64,000 bases of DNA, taken from positions 72,474 through 136,473 of the forward strand of contig CAIYWC010000189.1 of assembly GCA_903929795.1 (NCBI GenBank), written 5' to 3'. Below are positions 5,601-62,941 of the stretch, one piece after another. The stretch comes from an uncultured Myxococcales bacterium. Its GTDB lineage: Bacteria > Myxococcota_A > UBA9042. Made by a program: the position numbers and the translations under genes. A model generated the notes under the pieces. It did no database searches and had not been told where the DNA came from. It was given only the letters and a program-made list of their open reading frames with translations. Within the stretch, counting starts at the first letter, position 1. Each line of letters begins with the position of its first letter.

Positions 5601-6350
5601 GTCGCAGTTGTCGTCCACGCCGTTGCAGGCCTCCGTGGTGGCGCTGGGCGCGTCGCAGGCCGACAGACCGCTGGCCAGGCACGTGCGCACGCCCGGGCAG
5701 GTGCCCAGCGCGTTCTTGTTGCTGCACGGCGTCTTCGCACCGTCGGCGATGGCCTGCTGCGAACACGGGCACACGCCATTCTTGCGCAGGCACTGCTTGC
5801 TGGCCGCGGGTCCGCCGCTACCTTCCGCGTCGGCGCAGGCGTAGCCGGTGGGGCAATCGGCGTCCGCCTTGCAGCCGCTGCCGCAAAAGCTGCCGCTGGC
5901 GCCGTAGGCGATGCAGACCGCCGCGAGGTTGAGCTTCTGGCACTCGCTGTCCAGCCCGCATGGCCGGCAGAGCGCGGGCGGGCCATCGTCGACGGGCGCC
6001 GTCACATCCACAGCGGCGTCCGCAGCGGCATCCGGCGCCTCATCGCTGTCCCCGGTCGCCGTCGCGTCGCTGCCATCCGGGACTGCGGCATCCGCGGCGG
6101 GGACGTCGGCCGCGGTATCGGCGATCTCGCTGGCTGCATCCGGCACCGCATCGCCTTTGCCGGCGGCGTCTGCAGCCGCATCGGCGGGCTTGCCGCTGTC
6201 ATACGCCGCGACGTCGCCCTTGTTCACAAAACCAAGCTCGTCGCCAAAAACATCGTCGCTTGGCGCGTCGGCAATCGGCGTGCCACAGCTGGCGAACAGC
6301 ATCAGGAGCAAAAATCGCAGCGCAACGGCGCGACACAGCAGGGATTTCAC
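2631..6350 (-). CDS. Giant secreted lipoprotein (1239 aa) built from about 9 DGDGYG...C..DC.D.N..V.PGA.E.CNG.DDNC.G.TDEG repeats (putative metal-binding motif), about 6 Myxococcus cysteine-rich repeats (CDDGNACTTD.C....GC) and C-terminal RCC1-like propeller repeats (..CWG..)
   Basis: GTG start at 6350 with AGGAG 5 nt upstream. Signal peptide plus lipobox is MKSLLCRAVALRFLLLMLFASC|G. Repeat units were read directly from the translation. RCC1-like blades are QCWGANTP, LQCWNYSG, VACWGTNTYGQ, ITCWGDDS, LACWTTT and VQCFGDDS. Confidence 0.85.
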   Translation of the reverse strand: MKSLLCRAVALRFLLLMLFASCGTPIADAPSDDVFGDELGFVNKGDVAAYDSGKPADAAADAAGKGDAVPDAASEIADTAADVPAADAAVPDGSDATATGDSDEAPDAAADAAVDVTAPVDDGPPALCRPCGLDSECQKLNLAAVCIAYGASGSFCGSGCKADADCPTGYACADAEGSGGPAASKQCLRKNGVCPCSQQAIADGAKTPCSNKNALGTCPGVRTCLASGLSACDAPSATTEACNGVDDNCDGITDGANALGCTPFYPDKDGDGFGAGSPVCLCSAAGTGLSASGTDCDDNNAAVYPGAPELCNDADDNCNGVTDEGCDGDGDGWCAATATVVGKPKVCPFGGGDCNDASAAVHPGQPEICGNGVDDDCDGTTDVGIGGPGCTAFYLDADGDGYGTGASQCACGPEGAYTASKAGDCDDKNASVHPNAQEICGNGVDDNCNGQTDEGAGVGCTLWYVDGDGDGYGIGAGVCLCVADASHTASKGGDCNDAAASIHPGAPELCNNIDDNCNGLTDDGPPVDCTDFYADKDKDGYGGTDMACLCAADAVHTVTIGGDCNDASSAVHPGATEICNQIDDNCNGQTDELGAQGCSSFHPDADGDGYGGKDVKCACAADPIYHTLDATDCDDTNPNVHPGAKEICNGIDDNCDGITDPPNLDTCTNFFYDGDADGYGNALIQVKCLCAGSGLWSATVPGDCNDANGAIHPGATEVCNGVDDNCDGQIDNGAGTFYYADGDGDGYGNPLVFVQSCTPVATFVTNKLDCNDGNAAIHPGAIEICDGVDNDCNGLTDDGLCDDGNACTTDSCVPGSGCNHVPTTSACNDGNACTTGDSCATGTCVGMAVSCDDGNACTADACASASGCTHAPTTGACSDGNACTSGDSCTSGTCKSGATLSCDDANVCTTDSCVPASGCSHANNALVCSDGSACTSGDVCTAGACKGTTLSCDDGNACTTDACVPASGCTHTQTCATLPFADPGSTYAEGLNAAGKLLAWGSAATPPTGTFTQVSAGYYFACVVNASNQMQCWGANTPTALTSTQTGIAQVSVGKPHACVVKTDGTLQCWNYSGSAQTTGTPTGAFVQVSCGQNHSCALRADGTVACWGTNTYGQTTVPGGATFSQISAGDNFTCGIRKSGGGITCWGDDSVFAVSKAPATGSFIGIAAGSMACAVQADNTLACWTTTASGSSTPPAGSKWLSVGAGENVVCGVLTSKAVQCFGDDSNGVVSGVPVSGW

Positions 6351-35220: not shown

Positions 35221-35259
35221 AAAAACGCCGACGCCGACGAAGTTTCCCTCGTCGGCGTC
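35221..35259 (-). terminator. Intrinsic terminator for the minus-strand metzincin gene (11-bp perfect stem GACGCCGACGA/TCGTCGGCGTC, 8-nt loop, then U5 on the minus-strand transcript)
   Basis: Stem 35230-35240/35249-35259. A5 at 35221-35225 on the plus strand reads as TTTTT on the minus strand. Lies 23 nt past the stop at 35282-35284. Confidence 0.5.
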
Positions 35260-51828: not shown

Positions 51829-52296
51829 ATGACCCGTCACCTCAGCGCTTCCGGACACGATCTGACCCCGTTGACGCCCGGGCAGATCGCACACTTGGCC
51901 GCGCAGCTGACCCCGCGCCAACGCGCGATCCTGCTGAACGCAGCAACCGAGGCGCCGTTTTGCAGCGGCCTGCTGGAGAACAAAGGCCCGGGCGTGTACG
52001 TCTGCGCGCTGGGCGGCCTACCGCTCTTTCGCGCCAGCGCCAAGTTCGAGAGCGGCACGGGCTGGCCGAGCTTTTTTGCGCCCTACGATCCGGAGCATAT
52101 CGTCGAGCGCGTGGACCTGAGCCACGGGATGCGCCGGGTCGAGATCCTGGACGCGCGTTCAGGCGGCCACCTGGGGCACCTGTTTGACGATGGGCCGGCG
52201 CCGACGGGCCGCCGCTACTGCTTGAACGGTGAGGCGCTCGTCTTCATCCCTGACGGCGCGCCGCTGCCGCCCGAGTCCCAGCCTGCACGGGAGTAG
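51829..52296 (+). CDS. msrB: Peptide-methionine (R)-S-oxide reductase
   Basis: SelR core ...FESGTGWPSF... and RYCLNGEAL. Cys pairs CSGLL/CALGG. Confidence 0.9.
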   Translation: MTRHLSASGHDLTPLTPGQIAHLAAQLTPRQRAILLNAATEAPFCSGLLENKGPGVYVCALGGLPLFRASAKFESGTGWPSFFAPYDPEHIVERVDLSHGMRRVEILDARSGGHLGHLFDDGPAPTGRRYCLNGEALVFIPDGAPLPPESQPARE

Positions 52297-56057: not shown

Positions 56058-56807
56058 ATGCAACTCTCTGATTTGAAAATTATTGTTACCGGCGCGGGCA
56101 AAGGCATGGGCGCGCATTTTGCAACGCGGCTGTCCCAAGCCGGCGCTCAGGTCTGCGCGGGCGACATCGACGAAGCGGCGATGGAAAAGCACCTGCCGGC
56201 GGGCGTGCACAAACGGCGGCTGGATGTGAGCGTGGAGGCCGATGTCGCCGCATTTGTCCAGTGGGCCAACGGCCAGATGGGCGGGCTGAACGGCCTGATC
56301 AACAACGCCGGCATCATCGCGGACGGGCTGCTGGTCAAGAAGGACCGCGCGACGGGCGAAGTGCTGCGGTTTCCGACCGCCAAGTGGCACGCGCTGCTGG
56401 GCATCAACCTGACCGGCGCGATGTGGATGGTGCGGGAAGTCGTCGGTACGATGGCAGAAACGGACCAGAAGCCGGGCGTGATCGTGAACATGAGTTCGAT
56501 CGCACGACACGGCAACCGAGGCCAGTCCAACTACGTGGCGAGCAAAGCGGCGCTGGCGGCAAATACCGTGACCTGGAGCCGAGAATTCGCGCCTTTTGGC
56601 ATCCGCGTGTGCTGCGTCGCGCCGGGCATGGTCGAGACGCCGATGACCGCGGGCATGAACCAAAAAGCCCTGGAAGCCTTTGTCGCGACGATCCCGGTGG
56701 GCCGGGTTGGACAGCCGGAAGATCTGTGGCTGGCGGTGAAATTCTGCCTGGAATGCGATTATTTCAACGGCAGGACGATCGACGTGGACGGCGGCATCGC
56801 GTTTTGA
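56058..56807 (+). CDS. SDR-family oxidoreductase (3-oxoacyl-ACP reductase-like)
   Basis: TGAGKGMG Rossmann motif, NNAG, and S...YxxxK catalytic triad (SSIARHGNRGQSNYVASKAA). Confidence 0.88.
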   Translation: MQLSDLKIIVTGAGKGMGAHFATRLSQAGAQVCAGDIDEAAMEKHLPAGVHKRRLDVSVEADVAAFVQWANGQMGGLNGLINNAGIIADGLLVKKDRATGEVLRFPTAKWHALLGINLTGAMWMVREVVGTMAETDQKPGVIVNMSSIARHGNRGQSNYVASKAALAANTVTWSREFAPFGIRVCCVAPGMVETPMTAGMNQKALEAFVATIPVGRVGQPEDLWLAVKFCLECDYFNGRTIDVDGGIAF

Positions 56808-57268
56808 TCGTCGCGATCGGAACGCTCCCTTGATTTCGGCGCACCCAGACGGCGACACGCGCTCGTGACACTTCTTGCGCGCTGCTACGAGCAGGTAGGC
56901 CCGCATGACGCGCCGGGCGTGTGCTGACCTGCGACTTCAATCGTCGCAGATCAAACATTTTCACGGCGGTCCGCGGCAGAATCGCCAAACATTCGAATAC
57001 CAAGTCGAGGGCGATGTCGGCGCCTTCGTTCGCGGCGAGGCTTGGCGTACGGCAAGTCGAGGCGAGGACCCACATACCATTGCCGGGCTGCCACGGGGAC
57101 CAGGACTCCCAACGGGCGGCCGAAGGCTGGCCGGGCAGCGAAAGCTGGGTTCCCGGGTGTGGATGGGTGTGTCTGGCGAGTGCCAGCCCCCCTTCGGCGG
57201 GGCGGCAAAAGCTGGGCGGGCGGCCCCGGCGCGAAGGGCATACCAGGTCTTGCCCAAACATCATTGAA

Positions 57269-57288
57269 TACTGAACATGTGTTCAGTA
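57269..57288 (+). promoter_or_regulatory. LexA (SOS) box of the Myxococcus type: TACTGAACATGTGTTCAGTA (core CTGAACATGTGTTCAG)
   Basis: Perfect 20-bp palindrome in an AT-rich patch 12 nt upstream of the imuA ATG. Matches the CTRHAMRYBYGTTCAGS consensus at 16/17 positions. It is the only such site in the window. Confidence 0.7.
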
Positions 57289-57299
57289 TTCTGTAGCAC

Positions 57300-57989
57300 A
57301 TGAAGCCCCTGCCGCATAACTTGTTCTTCGCACATATCAACCGTGTTTCCAGAACGTTGCCTGTTCCCGTCTCCGCCAGAGGCCTTGGTCATCAGCGCCT
57401 GAACTGGCCGGACTTGGTCGGTCGGTTAGTCGAGATCGTCGGCGGTCCACGGTCACTGCGGCTGGCGTGGCTGGCGCAGCTGACAACGCAGGTTCAGGCG
57501 GCGGGCGACATCGCGGTGTGGCTCCAAACTACCGAAAGTACGCCATTTCCTCCTGATTTGCTGCGCGCGGGGATCGCGCTGGATCGCCTGCCGGTGCTAC
57601 GTCTCGCCGACTTTCCGGCGCAGTTGCGGGCAGCGGATGTGCTGCTGCGATCGGGCGCGTTTGGCCTGTGCGCGATCGACGCTACGGCGGCGAGCCAGCG
57701 CGCCTTGGATACCTCGCGGTCGCTGGACAGCGCGCTGGGACGGCTGCTGGGACTGTGCCAAAAGCACGCGTCCGCACTGGTATTTTTGACGCCCGAAACG
57801 CCTAATCTGGCCATTCAGCAAGAAAACGCAGGATTTTTGCAGACTTCGCTGATTTCTCTCCGCCTGACGGCAGCACGCGATCGCGAGGTGTCGCGGCGGG
57901 TGCGGCTGGAGGTGAAAAAAGACAAGCGGCGCGGACCAGCGACGCTGCGGTCGGAAGTCAACGGAGGGCCCGATGGCCTTGAATTCTGA
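57300..57989 (+). CDS. imuA: ImuA-like (SulA/RecA-fold) translesion-synthesis accessory protein
   Basis: Assigned mainly from its position as first gene of the LexA-box/imuB/dnaE2 cassette and its size of about 230 aa. A RecA-like remnant is present. Confidence 0.65.
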   Translation: MKPLPHNLFFAHINRVSRTLPVPVSARGLGHQRLNWPDLVGRLVEIVGGPRSLRLAWLAQLTTQVQAAGDIAVWLQTTESTPFPPDLLRAGIALDRLPVLRLADFPAQLRAADVLLRSGAFGLCAIDATAASQRALDTSRSLDSALGRLLGLCQKHASALVFLTPETPNLAIQQENAGFLQTSLISLRLTAARDREVSRRVRLEVKKDKRRGPATLRSEVNGGPDGLEF

Positions 57990-59550
57990 GGACAAACGTC
58001 TGGCATGCGTCGACATTCCCGCGCTGCCGCTGCAGTGCCTGGTGCGGCGCGAACCGGCGCTGGCGACGCTGCCGGCGGTGATTGTCGACGAGCTGCATCC
58101 GCAAGGGCGGGTGCTGTGGACCAACCGCGCGGCGCGGCTCGCGGGCGTGCGGGCGGGCGCGCGCTACGGTCACGCGCTGAGCCTGTGTGCGCAACTGCGC
58201 GCAGGGCTCGTGCCGGACGCGGAACAACAGGCGGCAATTACTGAAATTGCTGAACTTTTGCGCACCTTTACTCCGCTGGTTGAGCCCGCGCGCCAGGAGC
58301 CAGGCGTGTTCTGGCTGGACGCCAATGGCCTCTCGCGCTTTTATGCCGACTTGCCGCTGCCGGACATCCACGCGCGCTGGAGCGAGGAAATTCGCCAGAA
58401 ATTGCGCGCTGTGGGATGGCACGCCGCAGTGGTGCTGGGTTTTGACCGGTTGGCGACCTACGCGATTGCCCGGCATTTTCACGGCGTGCGGGTGCTCGGC
58501 GATCCGGCACAGGAGGCCCACGCCTGCGCGCGCGTGAAGCTGGCGAGCCTGGGCGCGACCTGGGGCATCGCGCCGAACGTGCGCGATGATCTGGAGCGGC
58601 TGGGCGTCGCGACGTTGGGTGACCTGGCTGCGCTGCCAGAGACCGCGCTGCGCGAGCGCCTGGGGCTGCAGGTCGCGCTGCTGCGGCGGCGGCTGGCGCA
58701 CGACGTGCCGATGCCGCTGGCGCCCGAGCTGCCGCTGCCAGAGCCGGTGGCCGCGCGCGACTTCGAGCCGCCGGATAACAACGCAGAACGCCTGCTGTTT
58801 GCCGCCAAGGGCCTGCTTGGGCAGTTGCTGCCGCTGCTGGTGGCGCGCCGCCAGGCGGTGGCCACGCTGGAGGTGCTGCTGGTGCTCGATCACGCGCCGA
58901 GCCAGCTGCTGCCGCTGCAGCCCGCCGAGCCTACCCTCCAGGAGCCGCAGCTGCTGGATCTGGTGCGCCTGGCGCTCGATCGCACACCGCTCCCGGCGGC
59001 CGTCCAGACGCTGCGCCTCGCACTGCACGGCGTCCCGGCGACGGCGGGGCAACTGGCGCTGTGGCAGCTGCAGGGCCAGCGCGACCCGCAGGCGGCGGCG
59101 CTGGCGCTGGCACGGCTGCGCGCGCTTTTTGGTGAGGACGCGGTAGTGGTGGCGACGCCGCGGTCAGGCTGGCTGCCGGAGGCGCAGTTTACCTGGCAGC
59201 CGCTGCGCAAGTTGTTGATTCACAAGGCGCCCGCCGTGGAGGAACCGGCCAATGTCATCCACCTGCCGCAGCAGCCGCCGGTGCGCATGGTGCGTCGGCT
59301 GCTGAGCCAGCCCGTGCGCCTGCCGCCGCGACCGGCAGATGGTCGGCCGTGGCGTCTCGCGCCGTATTCTCCTGAAACTGTTGTGCATTTTGACGGGCCT
59401 TACCGCCTCGCCGGCGGCTGGTGGCGCACCACCGACCAAACCGACCGCTGCCGCGACTACGGCTACGCCACGACGGACCGCGGCACAGTGCTCTGGGTCT
59501 TTTGCGAACCAGCACGCAACCGCTGGTTCTGCCATGGATTTGTCGAATGA
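57973..59550 (+). CDS. imuB: ImuB, a Y-family DNA polymerase-like protein (catalytically inactive type)
   Basis: N-terminal UmuC-like region LACVDIPALPLQ...LWTNRAARLAGVRAGARYGHALSLCAQL and HhH region LGVATLGDLAALPETAL. Overlaps imuA by 17 nt and dnaE2 by 4 nt. Confidence 0.85.
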   Translation: MALNSEDKRLACVDIPALPLQCLVRREPALATLPAVIVDELHPQGRVLWTNRAARLAGVRAGARYGHALSLCAQLRAGLVPDAEQQAAITEIAELLRTFTPLVEPARQEPGVFWLDANGLSRFYADLPLPDIHARWSEEIRQKLRAVGWHAAVVLGFDRLATYAIARHFHGVRVLGDPAQEAHACARVKLASLGATWGIAPNVRDDLERLGVATLGDLAALPETALRERLGLQVALLRRRLAHDVPMPLAPELPLPEPVAARDFEPPDNNAERLLFAAKGLLGQLLPLLVARRQAVATLEVLLVLDHAPSQLLPLQPAEPTLQEPQLLDLVRLALDRTPLPAAVQTLRLALHGVPATAGQLALWQLQGQRDPQAAALALARLRALFGEDAVVVATPRSGWLPEAQFTWQPLRKLLIHKAPAVEEPANVIHLPQQPPVRMVRRLLSQPVRLPPRPADGRPWRLAPYSPETVVHFDGPYRLAGGWWRTTDQTDRCRDYGYATTDRGTVLWVFCEPARNRWFCHGFVE

Positions 59551-62500
59551 CGCCGCCCTATGTGCCGCTGTGGGTCAAGACGCATTTCAGCTTTCTGGAA
59601 GGCGCCTCGCGGCCAGATGAGCTCGTCGAGCGCGCACATGCGCTGGGCCTGCCGGCGCTGGCGGTGACGGATCGCGACGGCGTGCCGGGCATCGTGCGCG
59701 CGCACGAGGCGGCAAAAGACCTGAATCTGAAACTGCTTTTTGGCTCCCAGCTGACGGTGGCCGACGCGCTGCCCGGGCGGCGACAGAGCACCGCCGCGAC
59801 GCTCCTGACCCCGGAAGACGTGGCGACCGTCCAACCGATGACGCCGGTGCTGCTGGCGATGAACCGCGCGGGTTATGCCAACCTGTGCCGTCTGGCGACG
59901 CTGGGGCGGCGGCGGTGCCAAAAAGGCGTGGCGCTCAACACCTGGCAGGAGCTTGCCGCGCACGCGCAGGGGCTCATCGTGCTGCTGCACCAGCCGCCGG
60001 ACGACCTGCACGCGCCCTGGCTGGCGGACATCGCGGCGGCGTTTGGCGATCGCGCGTATGGGCTGTGCGCGCGCCACGGCGAGGAGGCGGACAAGCCACG
60101 CGAACGGCAACTGCGTAAACTCATGGCCCATTACGGCTGGCGCGGCGTGGCGGGGCGCGAGGTGCTGTACCACGACGCGACGCGGCGGCGGCTGCAGGAC
60201 GTGCTGACCTGCATCCGGCTGGGCCTGACGCTGGACAGCGCGGGCCAGCGCCTCAAGCCGAACGCGGCGCACGACCTGCCGACGCCGATCGACTTTGCAC
60301 AGCTGTTTGCCGACCAGCCCGACTGGCTGCAGCAGACGCTGGAAGTCGCTGATCGCTGTACCTTTTCTCTCAAGGAGCTGCGCTACGTCTACCCGCTGGC
60401 GCGGCTGCCGGATGGAACGACGACGGCGCAGCACTTTGACCGGCTGACCTGGGCGGGCGCGGCGTGGCGCTATCCGCAGGGCGTGCCGGACGACGTCCGC
60501 GCGCAGCTGGCCAAGGAGCTGGCGCTGATCCACCAGCTGGATTACGCCGGCTACTTTTTGACCATGTGGGAGATCGTGCAGTTCTGCAACGCTCAAGGCA
60601 TTCTTTGTCAAGGCCGTGGATCGGCTGCGAATTCCACGGTCTGCTATGTGCTGGGCATCACGGCGATCGATCCTGTCCGGATGGGCCTGCTGTTTGAGCG
60701 CTTCTTGTCGCTGGAGCGCGCAGAGCCGCCAGACATCGATCTGGACATCGAGCATGAGCGGCGCGAGGAGGTGATCCAGCACGTCTACGGCCGCTACGAT
60801 CCGCTGCATCCGGCGGCCAAAAATGCCGACGATCCGGCAGCTTGTGTGCAAACCGGGCGGAGTCACGCGGCAATGGTCTGCAACGTCATCCGCTTTCGCG
60901 GCAAGTCGGCGCTGCGCGAGGTCGGCAAGGTGCTGGGCATTCCGGAGACGGATTTGGACCGCGCGTCGCGCTTTGTCTCGTCGTGGGGCGAGGACATCGA
61001 CGCGGCGCAACTGCAAACGGCGGGGTTTGCCCTGGAGTCGCAGTCGCACCGGCTCCTGCTGGAGTTTGCCAATGCAATTCAGGACTTTCCGCGGCATCTG
61101 GGCATCCATCCCGGCGGTTTTCTCTTGGGCCACGAGCCGATCGACACCCTGGTGCCGATTGAAAACGCCACGATGGAGGCGCGCACGGTCATCCAGTGGG
61201 ACAAAAATGACGTGGAGGCGCTGGGGCTGTTCAAGGTCGACCTCCTGGGCCTGGGGATGCTGAGCCAGGTGCACCGCTGTCTGGATTTACTCAAGCTCAC
61301 CAAGGGGTTGACGCTGACGATGGCGACCGTTCCGGCGGAGGACCCGGCGACGTACCAGATGATCAGCCGCGGCGACACGGTCGGCGTGTTCCAAATCGAG
61401 AGCCGCGCGCAGATGGCGATGCTGCCGCGCCTGCAGCCGCGGACGTTCTACGACCTGGTGGTGGAGGTGGCGATCGTGCGCCCGGGGCCGATTACCGGCG
61501 GCATGGTGCATCCGTACCTGCGGCGGCGCCAGGGCAAGGAACCTGTTGAATATCCGCACGAATGCCTGCGACCGGTGCTGGCCAAGACGCTCGGTGTGCC
61601 GCTGTTTCAGGAGCAGGTTATGCGGCTGGCGATGGTCGCCGCGGACTACACGCCGGGCGAGGCGGACCAGCTGCGGCGCGACATGGCGGCGTGGAAGCGG
61701 TCGGGCGCGATGGAAAAGCACCACGAGAAGCTGACGACGCGGATGGTGCAAAAGGGCATCGCACTGGAGTTTGCCGAGCGAGTTTTCCAGCAAATTCGCG
61801 GCTTTGGCGAGTACGGTTTTCCGGAAAGCCACGCCGCGTCGTTCGCGCTGATCTCCTACGTGACGGCGTGGCTGAAGTGCCACCACCCGGCGGAATTCAC
61901 CTGCGCGCTGCTCAATGCCTGGCCGATGGGCTTCTATTCGCCCGCAACGCTGGTCGAGGACGCCAAGCGCCACGGGCTCCGCATTTTGCCGATCGACGTC
62001 CAGCGTTCGACCTGGGAATGCGCAATGGAGCGCGGCGCGGTGCGGATGGGCGTGAAATTCGTACATGGTCTCAGCGTATTGCACCGCGCGCGACTGGAGA
62101 TGGCGCCGCCGCCATACCTCAACCTGGACGACTTTGTGCGGCGCACGCGGCTGGACAAGCGGGCGCTCGACGCGCTGGCCGAGGTAGGCGCGCTGGACAG
62201 CCTGAGCGTGGACCGGCGTCAGGCGCTGTGGCAGGTCCGCGCGCTGGCGCATCGCACGCGCGAGCCGCTGCTGTTGCCGCAGGATGAGACACTGCCGCTG
62301 TTTGCCGCGCTGGGTCTGGGCGGCACGATCGGCTGGGATTATCGCCGCAGCGGGCTGTCGACCCGCGGCCACCCACTGACGCCGCTGCGACCCGCGCTCG
62401 CGGAACGACGCCTGCCAACCGCCTGCGAAATCAACCAGATGCGCGGCGGCAAGCGCGTGCGATTTGTCGGCCTGGTGATCTGCCGTCAGAGCCCGGGAAC

Positions 62501-62732
62501 CGCAAGCGGCGTGACGTTTTTCACGCTTGAGGACGAGACCGGGTTTTGCAATCTGGTGGTCTGGAAGGACATCATGGCGCGTTTCCGCGTTATCGCCCGT
62601 ACCGCGCAACTGCTCGGCGTCACGGGCAAAATCCAAGCCGAAGACGGCGTGGTCCACCTGATCGCCGAGACGCTCTGGACGCCCGAACTCAGCCAGCCGG
62701 TGCCACTGCCCGCAAGTCGGGATTTTCATTAG
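59547..62732 (+). CDS. dnaE2: Error-prone DNA polymerase III alpha paralogue DnaE2 (ImuC)
   Basis: PHP domain start YVPLWVKTHFSFLEGAS, the pol III alpha catalytic region, and an OB-fold C-terminus. 1061 aa. Confidence 0.92.
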   Translation: MTPPYVPLWVKTHFSFLEGASRPDELVERAHALGLPALAVTDRDGVPGIVRAHEAAKDLNLKLLFGSQLTVADALPGRRQSTAATLLTPEDVATVQPMTPVLLAMNRAGYANLCRLATLGRRRCQKGVALNTWQELAAHAQGLIVLLHQPPDDLHAPWLADIAAAFGDRAYGLCARHGEEADKPRERQLRKLMAHYGWRGVAGREVLYHDATRRRLQDVLTCIRLGLTLDSAGQRLKPNAAHDLPTPIDFAQLFADQPDWLQQTLEVADRCTFSLKELRYVYPLARLPDGTTTAQHFDRLTWAGAAWRYPQGVPDDVRAQLAKELALIHQLDYAGYFLTMWEIVQFCNAQGILCQGRGSAANSTVCYVLGITAIDPVRMGLLFERFLSLERAEPPDIDLDIEHERREEVIQHVYGRYDPLHPAAKNADDPAACVQTGRSHAAMVCNVIRFRGKSALREVGKVLGIPETDLDRASRFVSSWGEDIDAAQLQTAGFALESQSHRLLLEFANAIQDFPRHLGIHPGGFLLGHEPIDTLVPIENATMEARTVIQWDKNDVEALGLFKVDLLGLGMLSQVHRCLDLLKLTKGLTLTMATVPAEDPATYQMISRGDTVGVFQIESRAQMAMLPRLQPRTFYDLVVEVAIVRPGPITGGMVHPYLRRRQGKEPVEYPHECLRPVLAKTLGVPLFQEQVMRLAMVAADYTPGEADQLRRDMAAWKRSGAMEKHHEKLTTRMVQKGIALEFAERVFQQIRGFGEYGFPESHAASFALISYVTAWLKCHHPAEFTCALLNAWPMGFYSPATLVEDAKRHGLRILPIDVQRSTWECAMERGAVRMGVKFVHGLSVLHRARLEMAPPPYLNLDDFVRRTRLDKRALDALAEVGALDSLSVDRRQALWQVRALAHRTREPLLLPQDETLPLFAALGLGGTIGWDYRRSGLSTRGHPLTPLRPALAERRLPTACEINQMRGGKRVRFVGLVICRQSPGTASGVTFFTLEDETGFCNLVVWKDIMARFRVIARTAQLLGVTGKIQAEDGVVHLIAETLWTPELSQPVPLPASRDFH

Positions 62733-62865: not shown

Positions 62866-62941
62866 GGTCGGGGAGACAGGATTCGAACCTGCGACATCCT
62901 GCTCCCAAAGCAGGCGCGCTACCGGACTGCGCTACTCCCCG
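62866..62941 (-). tRNA. tRNA-Pro (anticodon UGG)
   Basis: Reverse complement reads CGGGGAG-TA-GCGC-AGTCCGGTA-GCGC-G-CCTGC-TTTGGGA-GCAGG-...GGTTCGAATCC...-CTCCCCG-ACC. It has a 7-bp acceptor stem, D and T arms, and anticodon-loop TTTGGGA giving UGG. CCA is not encoded. Confidence 0.85.

Follow-up and report, generated by a model that had tools for sequence, protein, structure and literature searches.

The question raised by this locus was whether three overlapping genes near the end of a 64,000-nucleotide stretch of DNA from an uncultured Myxococcales bacterium (assembly GCA_903929795.1, contig CAIYWC010000189.1, positions 72,474 to 136,473 of the forward strand; hereafter the window) form a damage-inducible mutagenesis operon, and whether the inverted repeat in front of them is the operator of the SOS repressor LexA. 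The genes encode an ImuA-like protein (first open reading frame, ORF1), the Y-family polymerase homologue ImuB (ORF2) and the error-prone C-family polymerase DnaE2, also called ImuC (ORF3). In this uncultured freshwater member of the Myxococcota they very probably form a LexA-repressed, damage-inducible, translationally coupled mutasome operon, with a transcript that is probably leaderless. In bacteria without polymerase V (Pol V), SOS mutagenesis depends mainly on the imuA-imuB-dnaE2 cassette, and the window holds a textbook example of this well-known system, clean but ordinary.

The three genes lay on one strand as a single overlapping unit. The imuA-like gene and imuB shared 17 nucleotides (nt; 57973-57989), while imuB and dnaE2 shared the 4 nt ATGA (59547-59550), both as reported in the preliminary description of this DNA. 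An in-frame stop codon at 57294-57296 left the ATG at 57300 as the earliest possible start of the imuA-like gene, and the 12-nt distance that had been given between this gene and the central 20-mer of the repeat was confirmed with it. Independent gene calls in public records, made on further contigs of this species, agreed with these boundaries, giving products of 229, 525, and 1061 amino acids (aa).

ORF3 scored 1278.7 bits on the curated “error-prone DNA polymerase” model NF004225 (cut-off 939) and 625.6 bits, under the cut-off of 1002, on the replicative DnaE model NF004226. The NF004225 match began at residue 43 of a longer ORF with a GTG start, and the ATG was placed at 59547. The Pfam domains PHP, DNA_pol3_alpha, finger, HHH_6, and OB were all annotated in ORF3, and the DIDLD active-site motif was present. 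The third gene therefore kept its earlier identification as DnaE2, which stands on the curated NF004225 cut-off.

ORF2 matched the Y-family IMS domain PF00817 with 38.8 bits (cut-off 23.2). In an alignment of ORF2 with E. coli Pol IV and 15 orthologues, the first catalytic aspartate (D8) was kept, the D103/E104 dyad of Pol IV fell in a variable, unconserved segment (RQE-PG in the window), and the steric gate F13 was a proline. A clamp-binding-like QLxL(W/F) motif, QLALW in the window, was conserved among the orthologues, as was a C-terminal ImuB-C domain of the form GGWW...LWV...RRWF. Such features are hallmarks of ImuB (PMC6511836, PMC10421592). Judged by its residues, the protein is probably catalytically inactive, and the degenerate dyad fits the description of an inactive Y-family ImuB, although D8 is retained.

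The RecA profile match of ORF1 was weak (Pfam, E = 0.0085). Searched against RecA structures with phmmer, ORF1 gave E = 7e-5, and its AlphaFold model (mean predicted local distance difference test score, pLDDT, 81.6) retrieved RecA for all top Foldseek matches, with E = 1e-12 and a template modelling (TM) score of about 0.63. The RecA P-loop GPESSGKT aligned with GGPRSLRL in ORF1, and the P-loop was missing throughout the family. The Walker B aspartate was kept as the nearly invariant D127, aligned to RecA D144. Published work describes ImuA as a RecA homologue from which the ATPase site, the C-terminal domain of RecA and the Walker B aspartate are all missing (PMC6511836). ORF1 shares with that protein the RecA core without a P-loop and without the C-terminal domain, but differs from it by the retained Walker B aspartate.

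A pattern scan of species-representative genomes recovered a relative of ORF1 in 390 of 450 candidate stretches, and 80 loci were compared. The relatives spanned Myxococcota, Binatia, Acidobacteriota, Gemmatimonadota, Planctomycetota, and other groups. The closest of them (77-80% identity) came from uncultured freshwater “Myxococcales” metagenome-assembled genomes (MAGs), and the exact ORF1 protein occurred in lake metagenomes. An imuB gene directly followed the imuA-like gene in about 60 of the 80 loci, across many phyla, and dnaE2 was often next. On the curated ImuA model NF033429, 26 of 27 ORF1 family members gave a match at E ≤ 0.01, and close relatives of ORF1 scored 18-31 bits. By these scores ORF1 appears to be a divergent ImuA-like paralogue that lies outside the curated ImuA equivalog. 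The earlier call of an ImuA-like first gene was thus upheld by the RecA-core fold without a P-loop, by the Foldseek matches and by the recurring position beside imuB.

The inverted repeat was composed of two perfect 12-nt arms, GAATACTGAACA and TGTTCAGTATTC, flanking a non-symmetric central TG. Its central 20-mer TACTGAACATGTGTTCAGTA (57269-57288) had been called a perfect palindrome. A palindrome does lie at these positions, but it is only near-perfect (9+2+9, since the central TG is not self-complementary), and its arms extend beyond the 20-mer to 12 nt. One inverted repeat with arms of at least 10 nt was found in the window besides this one, and block-shuffled sequence gave a mean of 1.7; a long-armed inverted repeat in this window, taken alone, is not rare. 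The significance of the palindrome therefore comes from its motif content, its position and its conservation, and not from arm length.

As to motif content, the box matched 16 of the 17 positions of the Myxococcus xanthus SOS-box consensus CTRHAMRYBYGTTCAGS, which is present at lexA and recA2 in that species (PMC9705874). The only mismatch was at the last position (T versus S), and about 0.18 such consensus matches were expected per window by chance. An exact GAAC-N4-GTTC core, as in Gram-positive bacteria, lay inside the box. Compared with the Gram-positive Cheo box CGAACRNRYGTTYC, 12 of 14 positions agreed: the core was exact, and the outer C/G were T/A in the window. The box would thus fall within the GAAC-N4-GTTC motif class and not stand outside it. 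The preliminary assignment to a Myxococcus type held, but its exclusion of a Bacillus type was too strong, because the exact GAAC-N4-GTTC core is present.

Conservation was read from the related loci. The exact form ACTGAAC-N4-GTTCAGT was found in the window and at 17 sites in related loci (about 0.8 Mb), and all 17 sites were just upstream of an imuA-like, imuB, or dnaE2 start; an estimated 0.003 exact sites, approximately, were expected by chance in that amount of sequence. Between the window and five relatives (L001 to L005) the arms ACTGAAC and GTTCAGT were invariant, and the 4-nt spacer was different in every genome (GTTT, ATGC, ATAC, GTAT, ACCT, and others). The rest of the intergenic DNA could not be aligned with these five relatives, and nucleotide homology restarted exactly at 57270. 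Where the genes were split, the box was repeated, before imuB in L007 and L010 and before dnaE2 in L008, and a degenerate box with one mismatch preceded imuB in L070 and L077. The boxes of the split loci match the boxes reported in the imuB and dnaE2 promoters of M. xanthus (bioRxiv 10.1101/2020.12.14.422803). Invariant arms, a free spacer, a location within the promoter and repetition at split genes support the view that the palindrome behaves as an operator. Separately, a Myxococcaceae MAG (L020) carried TACTGTATTTCTGTTCAGTA (5879-5900) before its imuA-like gene, with the right half-site intact and the left one degenerate, which echoes the imperfect-palindrome consensus of M. xanthus.

The location within a promoter was clearest in two of the relatives. 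A promoter scan called TAGACA-16-TATACT (10/12) in L001 and TGGACA-16-TATCCT (9/12) in L004, and in both the box filled the spacer and overlapped the -35 and the -10, with the ATG 7 nt past the -10. The putative -35 of the window lay at the position of the -35 hexamers of L001 and L004, and its putative -10 at that of TATACT in L001 (Table 1). Among 18 imuA-like promoters (the box-bearing Myxococcota loci, window included), nearly all had TAnnnT right after GTTCAG and an ATG 11-12 nt past the box, and no consistent Shine-Dalgarno sequence was found across the 18. From the fixed box-to-ATG spacing and a -10 that ends 7 nt before the ATG we infer a leaderless mRNA; the promoter would be occluded by the bound repressor. 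The box-to-ATG spacing is also a possible search pattern for SOS genes in Myxococcota.

Table 1. Positions of the operon, its promoter elements and the comparison sites. Numbers without a locus name are window positions; L-numbers are compared loci or contigs.
Feature	Position	Strand	Remark
Inverted repeat GAATACTGAACA-TG-TGTTCAGTATTC	57266..57291	.	putative LexA (SOS) box
Operator core ACTGAAC-N4-GTTCAGT(A)	57270-57288		conserved part of inverted repeat
Putative -35 hexamer TTGAAT	57264..57269	+	inferred; aligned with TAGACA (L001) and TGGACA (L004)
Putative -10 hexamer TATTCT	57287..57292	+	overlaps right arm of box; ends 7 nt before ATG
imuA-like gene, 229 aa (ORF1)	57300..57989	+	RecA-core paralogue without Walker A P-loop and without RecA C-terminal domain
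imuB, 525 aa (ORF2)	57973..59550	+	Y-family polymerase homologue; QLALW motif at residue 360; ImuB-C domain
dnaE2 / imuC, 1061 aa (ORF3)	59547..62732	+	error-prone C-family polymerase
tRNA-Pro(tgg)	62866-62941	minus	134 nt after dnaE2 stop
tRNA-Pro(tgg), relative	L001 11471-11546	plus	downstream of dnaE2
tRNA-Pro(tgg), relative	L002 11460-11536	minus	downstream of dnaE2
tRNA-Pro(tgg), relative	L003 11456-11531	minus	downstream of dnaE2
tRNA-Pro(tgg), relative	L005 11514-11591	plus	downstream of dnaE2
Exact box before lexA	L107, L166, L179		metagenome contigs
Exact box before umuD (S24-only)	L135		metagenome contig
Exact box before recA	L114, L163		metagenome contigs
Exact box before uvrA	L109		metagenome contig
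Exact box before imu genes	L108, L118, L162, L174, L183		metagenome contigs
lexA-linked palindrome	L012, L028, L029, L054, L059, L065-L067, L072, L073		about 35 nt before lexA
lexA-linked palindrome	L013, L016, L019, L024, L035, L039, L048, L049, L057, L061, L074
TetR_N + TetR_C_25 (“AcrR family”) gene	L130:847-1351		high-GC metagenome contig
TetR_N + TetR_C_25 (“AcrR family”) gene	L176:557-1196		high-GC metagenome contig
TetR_N + TetR_C_25 (“AcrR family”) gene	L182:327-777		high-GC metagenome contig
TetR_N + TetR_C_25 (“AcrR family”) gene	L191:2497-3166		high-GC metagenome contig
TetR_N + TetR_C_25 (“AcrR family”) gene	L197:67-712		high-GC metagenome contig

The identity of the protein that binds the box was approached through its occurrence at other genes. 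A scan of metagenome contigs for ACTGAACNNNNGTTCAGTA returned at least 120 exact matches. Among the matches listed, the majority came from DNA of low guanine-plus-cytosine content (GC), presumably by chance, and 12 were directly upstream of SOS genes, namely lexA, umuD, recA, uvrA, and imu genes (Table 1). In the 80 compared loci, a lexA gene lay immediately upstream of the imuA-like gene on the same strand in 33. The majority of those lexA promoters contained an 8+4+8 TAC...GTA palindrome about 35 nt before lexA, with the same architecture as the window box, in one of two forms: TACTGAAA-N4-TTTCAGTA or TACCAGAC-N4-GTCTGGTA. LexA-regulated imuA-imuB-dnaE2 cassettes are widespread (PMC6511836, PMC4951493). 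Given the matches at SOS genes, the palindromes linked to lexA and the agreement with the M. xanthus consensus (PMC9705874), LexA is by far the likeliest binder of the box. With three gene identities and an operator embedded in the promoter, the description of a canonical damage-inducible mutasome is supported, LexA being its presumed repressor.

The two palindrome forms were distributed differently. The TACTGAAA-N4-TTTCAGTA type occurred in Binatia and others, and the (T)ACCAGAC-N4-GTCTGGT(A) type in Acidobacteriota, Gemmatimonadota, Latescibacterota, Krumholzibacteriia, and one member of the Polyangiales. The CCAGAC-N4-GTCTGG type is a candidate for a LexA motif that has not been described before.

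Several observations weigh against a simple LexA-repressed imuABC operon. Of the three proteins proposed for profile searches, ImuB and DnaE2 passed their cut-offs, but ORF1 did not, scoring 15 bits (E = 0.018) on NF033429 where the cut-off is 150. The hexamers of the window itself, TTGAAT-17-TATTCT, were weak (about 7-8/12) and were not called by the promoter scan. No lexA, recA, or other SOS gene was found within the 64-kb window, and the SOS-gene matches in the metagenome contigs belonged to other phyla, Kiritimatiellia and Elusimicrobia; these matches mark the word as an SOS box in general, rather than in this lineage specifically. Deleting lexA in M. xanthus does not derepress ImuB, and dnaE2 expression there requires the XRE regulator DdiA (PMC12288472); mutasome control in Myxococcota is therefore not always simple LexA repression. 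The palindrome also precedes five homologous TetR-family genes, each starting 0-13 nt after an exact TACTGAAC-(A/G)TG(A/C)-GTTCAGT, and the DNA word is therefore not uniquely diagnostic of LexA. In those five loci it seems to act as the operator for repressors of an unrelated family. Divergent genes beside the boxes in the metagenome contigs gave nothing informative.

The TetR loci and the M. xanthus results, in which dnaE2 needs DdiA and ImuB is not raised without LexA, are also the grounds for supposing that a different repressor, encoded elsewhere in the genome and either of the TetR/AcrR family or of an XRE type such as DdiA, binds the palindrome. TetR operators normally adjoin their own gene, which counts against a TetR protein here, and a TetR of that family was absent from the window and from all 80 cassette loci. 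The box instead tracks imuA-like, imuB, and dnaE2 genes separately, and the same word stands before lexA, recA, uvrA, and umuD. A site that fills the spacer between -35 and -10 is in the position of a repressor, but the published role of DdiA is to activate dnaE2, and the 16/17 match to the M. xanthus SOS-box consensus (PMC9705874) speaks against any repressor other than LexA. Another repressor is on these grounds improbable. Scarcely plausible is a reading of the repeat as an RNA or DNA hairpin, either a terminator of upstream transcription or a 5' stem-loop for translation or stability, although a terminator scan did flag the minus strand, where an 11-pair stem is followed by AATGATGTTT. No minus-strand gene ends at the repeat, the upstream ORFs at 56808-57264 look non-coding (flat GC across the three codon positions), and the plus strand has no T-run after the repeat. 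A structural stem should acquire compensatory changes, but across relatives the arms did not vary and drift was confined to the spacer. The repeat is also flanked by promoter hexamers, with the ATG 7 nt past the -10, and is therefore unlikely to be transcribed.

The surroundings of the operon raised a further alternative, that the cassette belongs to a recently acquired genomic island inserted beside a tRNA gene. The neighbours named in the preliminary description were located: a tRNA-Pro(tgg) past the dnaE2 stop and, upstream, MsrB, OEP, and HlyD-type efflux genes. The closeness of the tRNA-Pro to dnaE2 and the different context of the cassette in one relative, L004, favour insertion, and a 2006 article by Erill and colleagues (NAR 34:66) reportedly calls this type of cassette “dispersed” across the bacterial domain in its title, which was counted on the same side. 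Against this, four of the five species-level relatives were collinear with the window on both flanks, with nucleotide identity of about 77-88% over a stretch that takes in a beta-propeller gene, the SDR gene, the tRNA-Pro, and the downstream ORF. The GC of the cassette (0.64-0.73) was within the local range, and GC at third codon positions resembled that of neighbouring genes. No att-like direct repeats of the tRNA were found, and the flanking ORFs tested gave no match to an integrase. Because the flanks are conserved, the GC is normal and att-like repeats are absent, a recent island is very unlikely, and the question put by the preliminary description was answered in the negative. The cassette looks vertically inherited within the clade.

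Two further features of the flanks varied among the relatives. In L004 (CAIYBN010000039.1) the same box and cassette were present at about 81% nucleotide identity, with unrelated flanks on both sides and no nearby tRNA-Pro, which suggests rearrangement or relocation in that lineage. In the other four relatives a tRNA-Pro(tgg) was kept downstream of dnaE2, in the plus orientation in L001 and L005 and in the minus orientation in L002 and L003, as in the window; the tRNA gene has undergone a small local inversion.

For the LexA-repressed operon, the following course of events is proposed. In an undamaged cell a LexA dimer would sit on ACTGAAC-N4-GTTCAGT, overlapping both the -35 and the -10, and would keep RNA polymerase out. 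Once DNA is damaged, LexA would cleave itself in response to RecA filaments, and the promoter would open. Transcription would probably begin on the A of the start codon at 57300, or beside it, and yield a leaderless mRNA, a single message on which the three genes would be translationally coupled through their overlaps. By analogy with the homologues of Mycobacterium, Caulobacter, and M. xanthus, from which the protein contacts are taken, ImuB would serve as a catalytically inactive scaffold of the Y family, attached to the beta clamp by QLALW and to its partners by the C-terminal region. The ATPase-dead, RecA-like ImuA-type subunit would bind ImuB, and ImuB would recruit DnaE2 for error-prone lesion bypass. 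Presence of the cassette predicts damage-induced mutability in an uncultured freshwater myxobacterium. The value of the result lies in annotation rather than in new biology.

The clamp motif of M. tuberculosis ImuB is QLPLWG; the window has QLALW. In mycobacteria, where imuA'-imuB and dnaE2 form the mutasome (Warner 2010; PMC10421592; PMC11791113), the gene directly before imuB encodes a small RecA-like accessory protein that lacks an ATPase site, as here, and ImuB has a clamp-binding motif and a C-terminal partner-binding region. The mycobacterial operator is also of the GAAC-N4-GTTC type. The arrangement differs in dnaE2, which is unlinked in mycobacteria and linked in the window. The Cheo box, the LexA motif of the Gram-positive Firmicutes and Actinobacteria (PMC4951493), has the same GAAC-N4-GTTC core and dyad spacing; its flanks are C...G, whereas those of the window are (T)ACT...AGT(A), in a host from the Myxococcota.

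The LexA-regulated imuABC operons of Caulobacter crescentus and Pseudomonas, as they are cited in PMC6511836 and PMC4951493 (Galhardo 2005, Erill 2006), likewise place an imuA, an imuB and a dnaE2 gene, in that order and on a single strand, behind a palindromic SOS-type promoter box. The imuABC cassettes also share the roles of their products, with DnaE2 as the catalytic polymerase, ImuB as an inactive Y-family scaffold and ImuA as a RecA homologue without the ATPase site. The window differs in its first protein, which is far from curated ImuA (15 bits versus 150), and in its operator, which is of the myxobacterial, GAAC-N4-GTTC kind and neither the alphaproteobacterial GTTC-N7-GTTC nor the gammaproteobacterial CTGT-N8-ACAG. 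E. coli umuDC (Pol V), which LexA represses and which depends on RecA, is analogous in function, being a translesion mutasome centred on a Y-family protein. Polymerase activity in Pol V resides in the Y-family subunit, with UmuD' as the accessory subunit, whereas in the window the Y-family protein appears inactive and the C-family polymerase would carry out synthesis.

M. xanthus DK1622 belongs to the same phylum. It has the box at the imuB, dnaE2, lexA, and recA2 promoters (bioRxiv 10.1101/2020.12.14.422803; PMC9705874), and the ImuA homologue of a Myxococcaceae genome (L020) fell in the same RecA-like family as ORF1. The genes of M. xanthus are split, however: dnaE2 is separated by 6.57 kb, every gene is read from a promoter of its own, and the box is missing from imuA. 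The palindrome of the M. xanthus consensus is imperfect, and DdiA is a further requirement for dnaE2 (PMC12288472). The window has instead one compact, overlapping operon behind a box with fully symmetric arms.

Homologues of ORF1 (P0017, P0022, P0024, P0032, and others) are publicly named “recombinase A”, “recombination protein RecA” or “hypothetical protein”, and their scores on the curated ImuA model were only 15-31 bits. The ORF1 family is systematically mis-annotated or un-annotated, and it is missed by the curated ImuA model. A more far-reaching interpretation, which we put forward tentatively and regard as possible but doubtful, is that the first gene represents a large, mis-annotated third ImuA/ImuA'/RecA branch. 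This branch would carry a portable, leaderless-looking promoter module (box, TAnnnT, 6-7 nt, ATG) and at least three N4-spaced operator dialects, TACTGAAC, TACTGAAA, and TACCAGAC, that interchange between lineages. If true, it would offer a natural series for tracing the evolution of LexA binding specificity.

Between the SDR gene and the box, the window has a 462-nt intergenic stretch (56808-57269) that is unique to this species; in L001 to L003 the SDR stop codon is only about 25 nt from the box. Within 56808-57269 no Pfam or Rfam match, no repeats, and no similarity elsewhere were found, and GC was flat across codon positions. Public gene callers place a minus-strand ORF there, which was treated as non-coding in view of the flat GC and the missing Pfam match. 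The Rfam scan returned only tRNA.

Two other candidate boxes in the window were rejected. A second consensus match, CCTGGACGCGCGTTCAGG (52146-52163; one mismatch, on both strands), lay within the coding sequence of msrB (SelR), where synonymous positions were changed in L001, and was attributed to chance. The second candidate, GAACATGAGTTC at 56486, was inside the SDR gene, and no further box was seen in the window. The other perfect inverted repeat with 10-nt arms, ACGCCGACGA-AGTTTCCC-TCGTCGGCGT, was located at 35231-35258.

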